64,000 nt of DNA from Allocoleopsis franciscana PCC 7113. GTDB lineage: Bacteria > Cyanobacteriota > Cyanobacteriia > Cyanobacteriales > Coleofasciculaceae. The notes under the pieces are model-generated. The model saw only the letters and a program-made list of their open reading frames with translations. It did no database searches and had not been told where the DNA came from. The stretch covers positions 1,809,623-1,873,622 of the forward strand of contig NC_019738.1 of NCBI RefSeq assembly GCF_000317515.1, given 5' to 3'. Position 1 is the first letter of the stretch; each line of letters starts with the position of its first letter. Shown piece by piece: positions 4,382 through 46,949 of the stretch. The position numbers were made by a program, and so were the translations under genes.

Positions 4382-6352
4382 ATGCCAAAATCCCTCAACC
4401 CAGCCTCTAAACGTCCCAACCCACGAGATTATCTGCCTTTTCCCCGCATCAGCATTTTTATTTCCACAGTCCTCGGTATGCTCATCGCCGTTGTCGGCAC
4501 CGCTTGGACATTCACCCTCGCGTTTAAACCTCAGCCAGCACCCAAAGCTTCTGTCAACGACAAAATAGCCCTCAAATCACCCATCCTTGAGCCAACTTTG
4601 TCACAGCCTTTCACCCCTAGGCTGAAGCCAACCCATCCACCGATTGCTGAAGAAACACCAGCGCAGCATCCCGCCTCATACCCAGTTGCGTTCAAACCGC
4701 TAACCAGAACCTCACCCCCAACCCCTTCCTCATCCTCACTAAAGCTTCGGCTACAAGGAGAGGGGAGTCATTTAACTTGCCTCTTGGAATGCCACTGGGT
4801 ATCAAATGCCGAGAACGCCCCTTTGGCAGTCTACCCATTTCTGAGCCAAGAGACGGGGTTGAACTCAGTTCAGATGTTACAAAACCTCCCCACCCAACAC
4901 CAGGAAATCGCTCCCATTCAAACCCAGAAAACACAACAAACCCAGCCCATTGCTGACAACCCATTAACCGAAAATCAACCCAAACCTGTAGCGAAATCGC
5001 GTGCCATTAAACTCACTCTTTCGGATGTTGTCATTCTGGCTTTAGAGAACAATCGACCGATTAAAAATGCCTACCTCGAACGAATTGCCCAAAAACAAGA
5101 ACTAGCTGTAGCAGAAGATAAATTTTCTCCTGATTTCACTCCTACCGTGTCCATATCTATTGCACAATTAGGCACAAATCGCAGGACAACCGATGCAGAC
5201 TTAGGAATCGGGGCAACGGTTTCTGTAAAAGTTCCGACAGGAGGAGAGCTGAGTTTTCGTTGGGCAACCAATGGTCAGACGGTATCTCAAAATGGCCTGA
5301 ATCTTGATATCAATGATGACCCTTTCAGTCAAAATCTACAGCTCAGTTTTAACCAACCTTTATTAAGGGGTTTTGGAGTGAACGTAAATAGAGCTTCGGT
5401 TGATATTGCTCGATTGACGGAACAGGTTAATATCTTGGATTTAAAATCTACCCTAAGTAACACGATTACAGAAGCCATCCTCGCTTATCGTGAATTAATT
5501 CGGGCACAGGAACAGCTAAAAATTGCTCAAATTTCCCTACAAAGAGCAGAAGAATCATTAGCTAATAACCGAATTTTAATTGAGTCCGGTAGACTCGCCC
5601 CCGTTGATATTGTTCAAAGTGAAACTGAGGTGGCGAGGAGACAAGTCAGTTTGATAGAAGCTGAAAACAACCTTGAAGCCGCTAGATTACGCCTAGTGAA
5701 TATTGTTGATATTGAGCCAACGGCTGTCATTGTAGCTACTGACTCCTTGATTGCACCTGCCGTTTCTCTCAATTCAGACAATCTCAGGCAATTAGCGTTT
5801 GAAAATCAACCGGATTATTTGAAGGCACAGTTAGATTTAGAAAGAACTAAATTGGCCTTATTGCAAGCGGAGAATAACCGACTTTGGGATTTAAACCTGA
5901 ATACCAGTTACGGTTATGCTTCTAACAACACCAGCGATGTCCGAATCGGATTAGGGTTGAGCCGTCAAATTGGTGATTTAACAGTAGAACGAGATTTTCA
6001 ACGCCGTTTAGTCAACCAAATCCAAGCCGAAAATACTCTCACGGAGCAACGTGAGAGTTTAGATATTCAGTTAATAGATAGGATTAGAAATGTTAATCTG
6101 AGTTTCGCTCAGGTAGAACTGGCTAAAAAAGTCACAGAGTCCTCGGAAAAGCAACTAGAAATTGCACGAGAAAAACAAAGATTAGGGAGAGATATTACCG
6201 TTTTTGAGTTAATCCGACTTCAGGATGATTTAGTCCAAGCCAGAAATGTAGAACTTAATGCAATTATTAACTACCTTAATGCTTTAACCCGATTAGATCA
6301 GACTCTAGGCACAACCTTAGACACCTGGCAAGTAAAGATTGATAGACAATAA
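4382..6352 (+). CDS. TolC-family outer membrane efflux protein with Pro-rich N-terminal extension
   Basis: C-terminal ~430 aa show two outer-membrane-efflux-protein repeats (LTLSDVVILALENNRPIKNAYL..., LAFENQPDYLKAQLDLER...). N-terminal 200 aa are Pro/Ser/Thr-rich after a hydrophobic segment. Confidence 0.8.
   Translation: MPKSLNPASKRPNPRDYLPFPRISIFISTVLGMLIAVVGTAWTFTLAFKPQPAPKASVNDKIALKSPILEPTLSQPFTPRLKPTHPPIAEETPAQHPASYPVAFKPLTRTSPPTPSSSSLKLRLQGEGSHLTCLLECHWVSNAENAPLAVYPFLSQETGLNSVQMLQNLPTQHQEIAPIQTQKTQQTQPIADNPLTENQPKPVAKSRAIKLTLSDVVILALENNRPIKNAYLERIAQKQELAVAEDKFSPDFTPTVSISIAQLGTNRRTTDADLGIGATVSVKVPTGGELSFRWATNGQTVSQNGLNLDINDDPFSQNLQLSFNQPLLRGFGVNVNRASVDIARLTEQVNILDLKSTLSNTITEAILAYRELIRAQEQLKIAQISLQRAEESLANNRILIESGRLAPVDIVQSETEVARRQVSLIEAENNLEAARLRLVNIVDIEPTAVIVATDSLIAPAVSLNSDNLRQLAFENQPDYLKAQLDLERTKLALLQAENNRLWDLNLNTSYGYASNNTSDVRIGLGLSRQIGDLTVERDFQRRLVNQIQAENTLTEQRESLDIQLIDRIRNVNLSFAQVELAKKVTESSEKQLEIAREKQRLGRDITVFELIRLQDDLVQARNVELNAIINYLNALTRLDQTLGTTLDTWQVKIDRQ
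4734..4765. repeat. copy of short dispersed repeat (CCTCACTAAAGCTYCGGCT...GGGG) lying in frame inside the TolC-like CDS
   Basis: cctcactaaagcttcggctacaaggagagggg is near-identical over the first 19 nt to intergenic copies at 8256-8286 and (inverted) 46137-46167. It encodes SSLKLRLQGEG in the protein. Confidence 0.6.
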
Positions 6353-8188: not shown

Positions 8189-8255
8189 GCTTGGGAATTC
8201 CTTGAATATTGCTGGTGTTCAAAATCTTGCGCCACCTCTTTGACCCCCCTAACCT

Positions 8256-8286
8256 CCTCACTAAAGCTCCGGCTTAATAAGGGGGG
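8256..8286. repeat. short dispersed repeat copy (CCTCACTAAAGCTCCGGCTTAATAAGGGGGG)
   Basis: Matches the reverse complement of 46137-46167 at 28 of 31 positions. A related G-rich hairpin ctccccttagcaaggggag follows at 8330-8350. Confidence 0.6.
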
Positions 8287-8464
8287 AATATTAGGAAGAA
8301 CTTTTATTATTAGGGGAACTTAGCTCCCTCCCCTTAGCAAGGGGAGGGCTGGGGTGGGGTAAAAACGATTGGCTACAAGATCTGATTGATAGGTACTTAA
8401 TTTAGCGATCGCTCCCTAATCTTGTCTTGCCTAATCTCCCGAAAAATGTCCTAATCTTCAGAAT

Positions 8465-9325
8465 TCACAGAGCTTTTCTGTATGCTTTAGGTGTCGTTTT
8501 AGTATGTTGGCGAAACACCCTCGTGAAATGACTTTGACTCGCAAAACCCACTTCCTGACAGATTTCCACAAGCGCTAATTCTTGATGGCGCAGCAACTGC
8601 TTGGCTTTCTCAATCCGGCATTTCATCACGTACTGATGCGGTGTAAATCCTGTAGATTGTTTGAATAAACTGGCAAAGTAATTCGGACTCATCCGCACGG
8701 CAGCAGCAATTTCAGCCAGCGTCAAATTTTGGTCTAAATGCTCGTTGATGTAGCTTACCGCTTGCCTTAGCTTATAGTTGGGCAATCCACCTGTATAGTC
8801 TTTAATCTTCTGTGGGTGGGAACAGTATCGCCTGAGTAAATGCGCCGATAGTGCTGTTGCCATAGACTCCGCGTAAAGCCGACTGTCGGTACCCCCAGCT
8901 TCTAACTCCGCCTTCAGTGCCAATCCCATGTGCTGAATTAAGGGATCGTGTATCTGCCATTGCGGTACTAACTCGACTTTATCTGGATTCACCGATTCAC
9001 AAGCCGCACGGGTAAGTGTGGTAGGTTCGAGAAACAGTTCGAGTAATGGCACTTCGCGATCGACTTGTGTCTTGGGTAGGGATTGGGTAGCGGGGATAAT
9101 GGCAATCTCCCCCTGAGCGTAATCTACCTGTTTCCAACGTCCATCAAGTAGATAGGTGGCACGAAAATCATCCAGAGCAATCAGAATAAAGTGCTGACGG
9201 AGGTGAGTTTCAGCCATTTCGTCAGCGGGTTCTAGCTCATAGATGAGGTTCAAGCCATCCCATCCTGACTCGAAGCTGGAGAGGAGGTGTAAGTGTACAG
9301 GCGGTTCGCTGCTGGACACGATCAA
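8465..9325 (-). CDS. AraC-family transcriptional regulator
   Basis: C-terminal AraC HTH pair (LTLAEIAAAVRMSPNYFASLFKQSTGFTPHQYVMKCRIEKAKQLLRHQELALVEICQEVGFASQSHFTRVFRQHTKTTPKAYRK). The true start may be an internal Met, since only 8 bp separate it from the divergent WD40 ORF. Confidence 0.85.
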   Translation of the reverse strand: MIVSSSEPPVHLHLLSSFESGWDGLNLIYELEPADEMAETHLRQHFILIALDDFRATYLLDGRWKQVDYAQGEIAIIPATQSLPKTQVDREVPLLELFLEPTTLTRAACESVNPDKVELVPQWQIHDPLIQHMGLALKAELEAGGTDSRLYAESMATALSAHLLRRYCSHPQKIKDYTGGLPNYKLRQAVSYINEHLDQNLTLAEIAAAVRMSPNYFASLFKQSTGFTPHQYVMKCRIEKAKQLLRHQELALVEICQEVGFASQSHFTRVFRQHTKTTPKAYRKAL

Positions 9326-27480: not shown

Positions 27481-27655
27481 GGGTCATACTAAATCCTAGT
27501 TTACTACCCCTTGTTTGGTGGAGACAAGGCAGAAGGCAAATCGCCTGAGCTGACACTCCAGGGAGATTCGGTTATCGTAGAAGTTACGTAAAAAATTTGT
27601 GTTTTTTTATGTGTTAGTCTGTGTAAGACATCAGTGTAGTACTGGGCATTGCCGC

Positions 27656-44588: not shown

Positions 44589-44792
44589 ATGACTATTATT
44601 GACTTTTTCGCATTTGCTTTGCTTGCTTCATGGGCTGCGATGATTTGGGGATCGTTGCAAAAGGTTGATGGAGACAAGGTAAAAGGGTATAAAAAAGTGA
44701 ATGAAGAGTTGTGGGTAGAAACTAAAGTTTCAGGTGACAAAAAACCCAGGTTTCCAGACTTATGGGAACCTGTAATACCACCCAAAAAGTAA
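44589..44792 (+). CDS. small membrane protein (67 aa), hypothetical
   Basis: GGAGA Shine-Dalgarno 7 nt upstream of ATG. One TM helix (IIDFFAFALLASWAAMIWG) then Lys-rich tail. Located after an ~850-bp AT-rich region. Confidence 0.4.
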   Translation: MTIIDFFAFALLASWAAMIWGSLQKVDGDKVKGYKKVNEELWVETKVSGDKKPRFPDLWEPVIPPKK

Positions 44793-45281: not shown

Positions 45282-46070
45282 ATGTCCGAAACTACCCTAG
45301 CAGCACCCGATATCCAACTCCCCCCCACACAGGCAGAGCTGCCCTATGATGATGGTATCCCCATGGAAAGTGCACGGCATAAAGCCCAAATGGACTTGCT
45401 GATTGATGCCCTAATTCCTTGGTTGGAACAACGGGAAGATGGGTTTTTCGGCGGCAATATGTTTGTCTATTACAGTCTGGCGCAGGTACGAAACAAAGAC
45501 TTTAAAGGGCCAGACTTTTTTGCCGTGCTAGGAGTCCCCAAAGGTGAACGAAAAAGTTGGGTCGTTTGGGAAGAAGGAAAAGCACCGGATGTAGTAATTG
45601 AGTTGCTTTCTGAAAGTACTGCCGCCGCCGATAAAAACAACAAAAAGCTGATTTATCAAAATCAAATGCGCGTACCAGACTATTTTTGGTATGACCCCTT
45701 TAACCCGGATGATTGGGCCGGTTTCTCAATTCAACAAGGCCGTTATCAACCCATCACACCCAATGCTCAAAATCAGTTAGTGAGTCAATCATTAGGACTA
45801 GCATTGCAGCGTTGGCAGGGAAATTACAAAGGCATTGATGCGACTTGGTTACGCTGGGCAACCTGGGAAGGAGAATTGCTGACAACACCTGAAGAAAAGG
45901 AGCGACAACGAGCAGAGCAAGAGCGACAACGAGCAGACAAGGCAGAAGGGCAATTGCTACAAACGGCACTCAACTTACTTGACGCTGGAATGACAAGAGA
46001 ACAGGTAGCTCAATTAACAGGTTTGACTTTATCTGAAATAGAACAATTGATAACAAATTCTGAGAAGTAA
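45282..46070 (+). CDS. Uma2 family (DUF820) endonuclease-like protein with C-terminal coiled-coil/HTH-like extension
   Basis: 262 aa. GPDFFAVLGVPKGERKSWVVWEEGKAPDVVIELLSEST is the same signature as the partial gene at 1-338. C-terminal EQERQRAEQERQRADKAEG repeat. Confidence 0.85.
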   Translation: MSETTLAAPDIQLPPTQAELPYDDGIPMESARHKAQMDLLIDALIPWLEQREDGFFGGNMFVYYSLAQVRNKDFKGPDFFAVLGVPKGERKSWVVWEEGKAPDVVIELLSESTAAADKNNKKLIYQNQMRVPDYFWYDPFNPDDWAGFSIQQGRYQPITPNAQNQLVSQSLGLALQRWQGNYKGIDATWLRWATWEGELLTTPEEKERQRAEQERQRADKAEGQLLQTALNLLDAGMTREQVAQLTGLTLSEIEQLITNSEK

Positions 46071-46136: not shown

Positions 46137-46167
46137 TCCCCCCTTAACAAGCCGGAGCTTTAGGGAG
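46137..46167. repeat. short dispersed repeat copy, inverted relative to 8256-8286
   Basis: cccccttaacaagccggagctttagggagg. Its reverse complement cctccctaaagctccggcttgttaagggggg matches 8256-8286 at 28 of 31 positions. Confidence 0.6.
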
Positions 46168-46190
46168 GAGCTGGGGGGGAATCGAAACTC

Positions 46191-46949
46191 CTAAATGCTG
46201 TATTCCATTGCAGGCTCTTGTTTAGACCCGTGAGGCGGACGCTCGGTTGCACCTGGAATTTCCTGGCGAGTGAGCAAATCAAATACATGGTCGCCAATGG
46301 CAGCTTTTACATCATCTTCTAACTCATGAACCACATCTCGATTCAGTTGAAATGCATAATTAGCTTCGTCTACAATTCGTTGAATTGTTTCCTCATCAAC
46401 GGATAAAGAATTCAACGCCTGACGATACTTCTCTTTAAATGCGCGTTTGGCTTCTATAGTGGGAATTTGCTCAAATTCATGCAATCCCGTACCCTGATCG
46501 GGAGGTAATTTCAAGGCCGATCGCACAATATTTTTCAACGCTTGTCCCCCAGACAAATCACCCATATAGCGAGTGTAAGCGTGAGCAATCAGCAACGCCG
46601 GGTCGGTATTAGCAATTTCATGTATGCGATTAACATAAACCTGACCGGCGGGTAATGGTGTAATCTGTTCGGGCCAGTTGTCGCCATAGTAAAATGCCAA
46701 GTCTTTTTCCAGATTCGAGGTGCGGTTAAGTTCAGCAAAATACATCGACCCAATTACTGGATGAGTCTGGTGCCGTTGAAGCTCTTCTTCCAGCGCACTA
46801 TAGACCAAATAAAGATTGAAAAGCAACTTACGGAATGGCTCTCGTTCAACAATCCCTTTGAGGAAACACTTCATGTAAGCAGTATTCTCTGCGGCGGTGT
46901 GAGACTGTTTCGTACCTTCTCGCAGGCGATTGGCTAGATCGTGGCTCAT
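46191..46949 (-). CDS. heme oxygenase (HO-1 family)
   Basis: 252 aa. MSHDLANRLREGTKQSHTAAENTAYMKCFLKG..., proximal His in KQSHT, typical cyanobacterial ho sequence. Confidence 0.9.
   Translation of the reverse strand: MSHDLANRLREGTKQSHTAAENTAYMKCFLKGIVEREPFRKLLFNLYLVYSALEEELQRHQTHPVIGSMYFAELNRTSNLEKDLAFYYGDNWPEQITPLPAGQVYVNRIHEIANTDPALLIAHAYTRYMGDLSGGQALKNIVRSALKLPPDQGTGLHEFEQIPTIEAKRAFKEKYRQALNSLSVDEETIQRIVDEANYAFQLNRDVVHELEDDVKAAIGDHVFDLLTRQEIPGATERPPHGSKQEPAMEYSI

Follow-up and report, generated by a model that had tools for sequence, protein, structure and literature searches.

A family of short repeats in a 64,000-nucleotide stretch of the genome of Allocoleopsis franciscana PCC 7113 (contig NC_019738.1, positions 1,809,623 to 1,873,622 of the forward strand; the whole stretch is called the window below) includes one copy which lies in frame within a gene for a TolC-family outer-membrane protein. 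The known systems closest to what is found there are the miniature transposable elements with inverted repeats (MITEs) of the IS630 type, the small dispersed repeats (SDRs) of the Nostocaceae, and the in-frame palindromic elements of Rickettsia.

Canonical IS630/Tc1 elements duplicate the dinucleotide TA, and 'Nezha' is a MITE in Anabaena/Nostoc. In Microcystis NIES-843, MITE families have been reported alongside IS630 elements (PMC2779907). What MITEs of the IS630/Tc1-mariner kind have in common with the element in the TolC gene is that they are short and non-coding, that their terminal inverted repeats (TIRs) are shared with an insertion sequence encoding an IS630-family transposase, that they are present in some and absent from other relatives, and that they occur in many copies with varied interiors. 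The TolC element is unlike them in its TNA flank, in its cargo of dispersed repeats, and in being a copy translated within a protein.

The SDRs were, as Elhai et al. are said to have described in 2008 (Genome Res 18:1484), 21–27 nt long, and the module at the centre of the repeats treated here is smaller, with a net length of 15 nt in a conserved string of 18–19 nt. The two have in common that they are dispersed and very short, have neither TIRs nor a coding partner, and lie exactly nested in other repeats, with carriers found in filled and empty versions. SDR1-8 are described from Nostoc punctiforme and relatives (PMC4390886, PMC5861425), and by the second of these accounts they were not found outside the Nostocaceae (PMC5861425). 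The present module is found in Coleofasciculaceae, Stenomitos, Synechocystis, Halothece, Limnothrix, and others, which would set it apart from the SDRs as described. Rickettsia palindromic elements (RPE) were reportedly found by Ogata et al. in 2000 to be inserted in frame in protein genes. Judging from the sequences, the cyanobacterial inserts are like these in being palindromic dispersed repeats in open reading frames (ORFs) which keep the frame and sit in loops or linkers of conserved proteins, and they are seen in TolC, WD40, polyketide synthase (PKS), non-ribosomal peptide synthetase (NRPS), TPS, and FAD oxidoreductase proteins and in a TolC paralogue of the OEP family, the flanking protein being conserved. 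They are unrelated to RPE in sequence and phylum, range from 15 to 126 nt, are layered, and have an outer layer with a transposase family. REP/REPIN elements are mobilised by RAYT transposases, the REPs being extragenic and tied to the RAYT gene (PMC3116915). Like these, the cyanobacterial repeats are short, GC-rich and imperfectly palindromic and are scattered through intergenic DNA, but they also occur in genes, which is atypical for REPs, and their conserved part is a non-palindromic core and not the stem.

The MITE in the TolC gene

The ORF at 4382-6352 on the plus strand has 100% identity to an Allocoleopsis franciscana entry named 'TolC family protein'. It comes after a gene for a MacB/FtsX-type permease and before one for a UbiA-family protein, an order kept in all relatives fetched. 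In its product an N-terminal hydrophobic helix at residues 24-42 is followed by a linker of some 165 amino acids and then, starting near residue 208, by the TolC domain. A first-pass annotation had noticed that a 31-nt intergenic repeat recurs in part within this ORF, and had proposed a MITE- or SDR-type element able to land in genes and be exapted as linker sequence. By comparison of sequences, the segment in the gene is an IS630-type MITE gained by insertion and not the 31-nt repeat itself (Table 1). The idea of an element landing in genes has thus stood, with the correction that the unit which landed is 123 nt long and has the core of the repeat nested within it; the word exapted has been given up, as only frame and stop absence are conserved in a region predicted to be disordered. 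The orthologues without the segment and the target-site duplication (TSD), both of which had been named as checks, were found.

These checks were made on a DNA alignment of six orthologues. The loci L001 and L002 (loci of the comparison are cited by such numbers), which have the same MacB-TolC-UbiA synteny, show a 126-nt in-frame gap against the window, and the site is filled in the window, L005, L003, and L004. The empty site in L001 and L002 reads CCC GGA TCA AAT and has a single TCA, the triplet which flanks the MITE on both sides in the window. Together the 123 nt of the MITE and the 3 nt of the TSD make 126 nt or 42 codons, and the reading frame is therefore kept. More distant orthologues used as outgroups (L249, L250) are also without the insert, and as it is missing from L001 and L002 as well, the event is polarised as a gain, made in an ancestor which the four carriers share. 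The TIRs of the element, TACCCAGTTGCGTTCAAAC and GAATGCCACTGGGTA, are imperfect. Its length of 123 nt is well within the bound of less than 600 bp used for MITEs, it has no coding capacity of its own, and its family ranges from 69 to 344 nt. A BLAST search of the plasmid collection PLSDB with the 127-nt insert yielded chance matches only.

The family has the ends TACCNAGTTGCGTTCAAAC...GCAACTNGGTA. Copies of it are present in the cyanobacterial loci L025, L065, L074, L075, and L077, and the same ends with 3-bp flanks were read in L074 (TAA), L025 (TCA), L065 (TGA), and L077 (TAA). The TIR sequence occurs in at least 120 metagenome stretches, the elements sharing their ends and having very different interiors. 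Among the matches listed, the termini bound more than 40 MITEs in metagenomes, and 31 of the 47 elements with both ends have identical TNA flanks, where a preference for T-N-A alone on each side would give roughly a quarter. The family is linked to IS630 by a full-length element of 1151 bp (L239 596-1746) with the same ends and TCA/TCA flanks, which contains an ORF with a helix-turn-helix and a DDE_3 ORF. Both ORFs match the NCBIfam model transpos_IS630 (NF033545), for which the DDE part scores 112.5 bits against a curated cut-off of 100, and PF13358 (DDE_3) is also matched. The IS630-type family appears to have TNA duplications. A model with TA duplication was ruled out for the TolC MITE because the empty site GGATCAAAT is without TA and the N of the TNA agrees between the two sides much more often than that model allows; a literature search for IS630 elements with TNA duplication gave nothing relevant. 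The family with ends TACCNAGTTGCGTTCAAAC (L127-L246) was also seen to reach well beyond cyanobacteria, to contigs from sediment, soil, and groundwater, and its shortest MITE derivative has 69 nt (L221).

As the first-pass annotation had stated, the ORF runs free of stops through the repeat copy (...PSSSSLKLRLQGEGSH... / ...SSSSLKLRLQGEGSH...), and the inserted residues 99-140 include the peptides SYPVAFKPLTR and LQGEGSHLTCLLECHWVSNAENAPLAVYPFLSQETGLNSVQMLQNLPTQHQEIAPIQTQK. An alignment of 23 orthologues showed conservation of the N-terminal 50 or so residues including the hydrophobic helix, with G39, T40, A41, A47, and K49 invariant, a highly variable and indel-rich linker, and, beginning near residue 208, a well conserved TolC domain. 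The AlphaFold2 model made from this alignment, a shallow one which gave an overall mean pLDDT of 55, is without secondary structure at residues 43-207 with pLDDT values of 23-39; the values are below 50 for residues 1-205 and about 25 over residues 99-140. From this model the linker is predicted to be disordered, and the insert would be tolerated rather than demonstrably exapted. In the insert only the frame and the absence of stops are visibly constrained, and constraint on single residues is not seen, pN/pS being 0.5-1.8 there (few sites) and 0.3-0.6 in the flanking linker. Conservation of the frame across four lineages suggests that the host protein may have stayed functional and expressed.

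The linker acts as a general landing pad for repeats. The TolC gene of Microcoleus sp. FACHB-53 (L004 3166-3300) contains a second in-frame insert of 135 nt at a different site, with ends TCCCAAATCTG...CGGATTTGGGA, flanks TAA/TAG, and a core-like GACCGGATCTTTAGTGAGGAC in the orientation opposite to that in the first insert. Other repeat-derived inserts were observed in the same linker of the outgroup orthologues (P0008 of L249 and P0018 of L250), an example being repeats of the GACACGGAGACACGG type which are translated as GDTETQRHGD.

Hairpin repeats and the 15-nt module

The nesting becomes visible when the TolC element is set beside two MITE copies of its own subfamily, of 102 nt (L074) and 103 nt (L144), which have the same interior, a C-run/G-run hairpin followed by TTGGGGGAGAGGT, and are without the 19-nt core. 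The MITE of the window is 21 nt longer, and the difference is made up by the module CCGAAGCTTTAGTGA and a duplicate of TGAGGA at the 5' edge of the G-arm; this tandem duplicate occupies 4727-4732, next to the core module at 4733-4750. Two MITE families, and no fewer than five families of host hairpins, likewise have filled and empty versions, GGGGG having become G-CCGGAGCTTTAGTGA-GGAG in the filled hosts with a net gain of 15 nt. In the second MITE family, to which the 135-nt insert of the FACHB-53 TolC gene (L004) belongs, the relatives of that insert in the window (~27483-27600) and in L048 are short by exactly 15 nt, CCGGATCTTTAGTGA. The window copy at 27483-27600, TACTAAATCCTAGTTTACTACCCC...GGAGACAAGGCAGAAGGCA, is without the 15-nt module and has a degenerate 3' half; related GACAAGGCAGAAGG strings lie at 44665, 45928, and 15567. 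Inverted repeats, an obvious duplication, and a coding partner are all lacking for the module.

In TolC orthologues it has decayed, by a 12-nt insertion in L003 and by substitutions in L004. The 12 nt (L003 3380-3400) stand between ...CTAAAG and CTCCGG of the core, the module itself having been the target, and L095 (3220-3260) has what seems to be one core within another, interrupted likewise at AGC^TTT. Variant modules with the ends GCCGGAGC...GTGAGGA and a different middle, GCCGGAGCGAAGGTGAGGA, were noticed in L028 (~4447-4500) and in L048 (minus strand, ~168), and the host hairpin in question was also seen to have, at that very position, an alternative insert of 41 nt bounded by CCGGAG.

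In the window itself the core, searched with up to three mismatches over 19 nt, gave three matches against 0.01 expected from dinucleotide shuffles, and the repeat is therefore real and not due to chance. The 31-mer CCTCACTAAAGCTCCGGCTTAATAAGGGGGG is present at 8256-8286 (copy A), exactly where the first-pass annotation had placed it. The inverted copy B has the 28 of 31 identities reported for it, at 46138-46168 and not at 46137-46167, one base off; the similarity of the two copies is longer, with 86% identity over 43 nt (8245-8287 versus 46137-46179). The gene copy had been given as 4734-4765. The first 19 nt of the 31-mer are found there at 4734-4752 with one mismatch, and the remainder, 4753-4765, lies outside the shared core and belongs to another hairpin, a host repeat of which it forms the loop and the G-arm. 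The G-rich hairpins said to follow the intergenic copies exist after copy A (8323-8360) and not after copy B, and the one after copy A is, instead of a companion of the core, an uninterrupted member of the repeat families which elsewhere carry it. Copy A and this hairpin lie in a 174-nt segment, 8215-8388, for which a repeat search found no convincing TIR; one had been suspected by eye, and as it was unsupported by that search the segment is not called a MITE. Copy B lies between the convergent genes 45282-46070 (plus strand, Uma2 endonuclease) and 46191-46949 (minus strand, haem oxygenase family) and is conserved in L247, a close relative. A search for its empty site found none, the copy being present in the closest relative and synteny lacking in the next. 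The string CCTCACTAAAG, at 4734-4744 and 8256-8266, is identical to the promoter core recognised by the RNA polymerase of phage T3 (AATTAACCCTCACTAAAGGGAGA), probably by coincidence.

The claim that the core is repeated elsewhere was borne out widely. A scan of a genome collection with the pattern GCCGRAGCTTTAGKGAGGA, using one genome per species, found it in at least 120 stretches, almost all from cyanobacteria and from many genera, among them Stenomitos, Coleofasciculaceae, Symplocastrum, Allocoleopsis, Microcoleus, Synechocystis, Halothece, Dactylococcopsis, and Limnothrix. The 133 copies among the matches listed fall into 47 flank clusters, 32 of which are singletons, and their flanks differ widely. 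A literature search with the exact core sequence found no paper. A few matches come from metagenome-assembled genomes labelled Sphingobacterium, Verrucomicrobiae, or Pseudomonadales (L013, L032, L038, L060); the typical cyanobacterial carrier repeats around the core in L013 and L032 suggest mis-binned contigs.

Of these 133 copies, 21 fall within open stretches no shorter than 300 codons. The core is translated there as SSLKLR(L/P), LLTKAPA, AGALVRR, or SRSFSE(E/D), which are all four stop-free frames of the six, and its shortness (15 nt) together with these open frames accounts for its being found translated inside many genes. The proteins concerned include WD40, PKS (in the linker between the KS and AT domains), NRPS, TPS-domain, and TPR proteins, an SMC-like ATPase, and a FAD-dependent oxidoreductase. 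Another host is a TolC (OEP) paralogue with 23% identity, the N-terminal extension of which has a module copy (L025 4842-4863) and a MITE with the same ends (L025 5044-5145). In the FAD oxidoreductase family the core copy sits in a variable loop, and other orthologues have no insert or different inserts. The A. franciscana PCC 7113 orthologue (P0295, outside the window) of the FAD oxidoreductase in L063 has an insert of its own, LSTQGGSATRSAQGGSAT, which is 18 residues long, lies in another loop, and resembles tandem-repeat DNA in translation.

Table 1. Positions in the window of the TolC gene, the inserted element with its layers, and the intergenic repeat copies
Feature	Position	Strand	Remarks
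TolC-family outer-membrane protein gene	4382..6352	+	ORF; 656 aa; PF02321
Target-site duplication, left copy TCA	4676..4678	+	residue 99
MITE	4679..4801	+	123 nt; encodes residues 100-140; clean indel versus L001/L002
Left terminal inverted repeat TACCCAGTTGCGTTCAAAC	4679..4697	+	pairs with right end in DNA fold
Internal host repeat of the TolC MITE	4709..4767	-	CTCCCCTCTCCTTGTA...AGGAAGGGGTTGGGGGTGAGGT; C-run/G-run hairpin and G-rich tail
Core module CCGAAGCTTTAGTGAGGA	4733..4750	-	from comparison with core-free MITE copies
Right terminal inverted repeat GAATGCCACTGGGTA	4787..4801	+	pairs with left end in DNA fold
Target-site duplication, right copy TCA	4802..4804	+	from flank comparison
Intergenic segment, 174 nt	8215..8388		missing from orthologous spacer of L003, L004
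Copy A, C6...G6 hairpin repeat carrying the core	8244..8287	-	module CCGGAGCTTTAGTGAGGA at 8255-8272, minus strand
Uninterrupted ('empty') host hairpin CTCCCTCCCCTTAGCAAGGGGAGGGCTGGGGTGGGGT	8323..8360	+	same family carries the core in L015
Copy B, C7...G7 hairpin repeat carrying the core	46137..46179	+	module CCGGAGCTTTAGGGAGGA at 46152-46169

Weighing the nested account

Very probably the locus is a set of nested repeats, an IS630-type MITE in the TolC linker which carries a hairpin repeat which in turn carries the 15-nt module. The outer layer would be a non-autonomous 123-nt element, the ends of which are recognised by IS630-family transposases. Its insertion, at a TCA of the N-terminal linker, would go back to an ancestor shared by PCC 7113, FACHB-53, and two relatives known from metagenomes, the element having been moved in trans by cut-and-paste through an IS630-family transposase which we infer for this genome. 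As 126 nt were gained and no stop occurs across the insert, 42 residues would have been added to the disordered linker between the export or anchor helix and the TolC domain, and the insert may have been kept because its length and frame are harmless. The middle layer would be a C-run/G-run hairpin repeat of a kind common in cyanobacteria, and the inner layer the module CCGGAGCTTTAGTGA(GGA), presumably inserted at the 5' edge of the hairpin G-run with a net gain of 15 nt, which would have become 21 nt in the TolC copy after a 6-nt tandem duplication. Of this account the comparisons show the polarity of the insertion, the TIRs and TSD, the IS630 link, the nesting, and the dispersal of the module.

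Two readings of the gene would do without an insertion into protein-coding DNA. That the segment is ancestral TolC coding sequence which merely resembles the intergenic repeat, the shorter orthologues having deleted it, can draw on the indel-rich nature of TolC linkers, in which deletions do occur. It is extremely improbable in view of the TIRs and TCA/TCA flanks, of the exactly one TCA left at the empty site, of the absence of the segment from the sister lineage and two outgroups, and of the same element at unrelated non-TolC loci of other genera such as L074 and L144. The other reading moves the true start downstream, leaving the N-terminal 200 residues untranslated and the repeat in a 5' leader, and some homologues have indeed shorter database entries of 448-593 aa, which together with the lack of modelled structure at residues 43-207 speaks in its favour. 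The conservation of the first 50 or so residues with their hydrophobic helix across the 23 orthologues, the absence of any other export signal of the TolC domain on inspection of the sequence, and the pN/pS of the flanking linker make it highly unlikely, though slightly less so than the deletion of ancestral sequence. In addition the seven distinct linker indels among the six orthologues (135, 138, 18, 18, 12, 9, and 6 nt) are all multiples of 3 and no stop codon occurs in any linker orthologue, which argues that the linker is translated.

Concerning the inner layer of the nested account, the conserved 18–19-nt core might be a functional motif under selection instead of a selfish module. It might serve as the loop in a regulatory or terminator hairpin or be bound by a protein or an RNA, and the copy in the gene would then be incidental. 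Identical sequence in many genera would fit this, as would the position of copy B between convergent genes, where a terminator is expected, and the usual place of the core between complementary C-run and G-run arms, flanking stems of at least 6 bp being found for 59% of the core copies versus 13% of random positions (the random-position control is the informative one, a swap control being inflated by shared C and G runs). These stems are due to the host hairpins, which also exist without the core, and the identity is imposed by the search pattern. The core moreover occurs in both orientations relative to genes and in four frames of coding sequence, and it decays freely in the TolC orthologues L003 and L004. 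At gathering thresholds an Rfam search of the window found one tRNA only, and a permissive Rfam search of 8190-8470 one meaningless miRNA match (E = 8). A stable hairpin element was likewise considered and dropped, the DNA folds being no more stable than shuffles (z = -0.5 to -1.1). A functional motif is therefore an unlikely explanation. A less remote, if still doubtful, one is that the core is a mere passenger with one origin, spread by amplification of its carriers and gene conversion. Large clusters with long identical flanks, such as 26 copies of one carrier of about 90 nt, indicate that much of the copy number is carrier amplification, and the orientation of the module relative to the G-run is always the same. 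Conversion needs homology, however, and there is none between contexts as dissimilar as the arms GGGGCAA/TTGCCCC and GTCCGCC/CGGAC, two MITE families, and coding loops; the many flank clusters and singletons among the matches listed point the same way. These unrelated contexts would argue for an activity of the module itself, with amplification and conversion explaining part of the copy number. Only tentatively, and with less confidence than the nesting as such, the module CCGGAGCTTTAGTGA(GGA) can be seen as an independently spreading 'nano-element' of which templated repair or an enzyme acting in trans would set copies at the 5' edge of G-runs. It would be active in several cyanobacterial orders beyond the Nostocaceae, and its length and four open frames would allow it to colonise coding genes.

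Several points weigh against the nested account. The flanks of the TolC MITE are TNA and not TA, with the direct repeats lying outside a terminal TA...TA, which means either a 3-nt stagger in a subgroup or element ends misread by 1-2 bases. The 64-kb window, which is what was covered of the source genome, shows no transposase with the MITE ends. Translation of the linker is something we infer. The junctions of the module are uncertain by 1-3 nt, the host GGG reading GGA after the module, and an orthologous empty site for an event involving the module only was not found among the loci compared, so that the filled and empty versions compared are paralogous repeat copies. Lastly, as the core copies were retrieved by the pattern itself, their sequence identity is no evidence of selection or conservation.

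Further repeats of the window and meaning for cyanobacterial proteins

Two other repeated regions of the window are unrelated to core and MITE. These are a large WD40-repeat gene with 126-nt periodic repeats at 9334-11631 and an array of 78-nt tandem repeats at 14377-14638.

The insert in the TolC gene is a clean and datable case of a bacterial MITE absorbed into a protein, for which the empty site, outgroups, and the family of the transposase are at hand. Nor does it stand alone. In these cyanobacteria the linkers and loops of many proteins, such as TolC paralogues, WD40 proteins, PKS and NRPS, and FAD enzymes, contain translated DNA derived from repeats. For annotation this means that unusual low-complexity peptides such as SSLKLR, LLTKAPA, AGALVRR, or SRSFSEE mark repeat insertions, and for protein evolution that insertions of repeats are a route to linker growth. 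For the biology of mobile elements the locus adds layered elements, apparent TNA duplications in an IS630-type family, and a small spreading module. If the module does spread independently, it would steadily supply cyanobacterial proteins with short peptide insertions.

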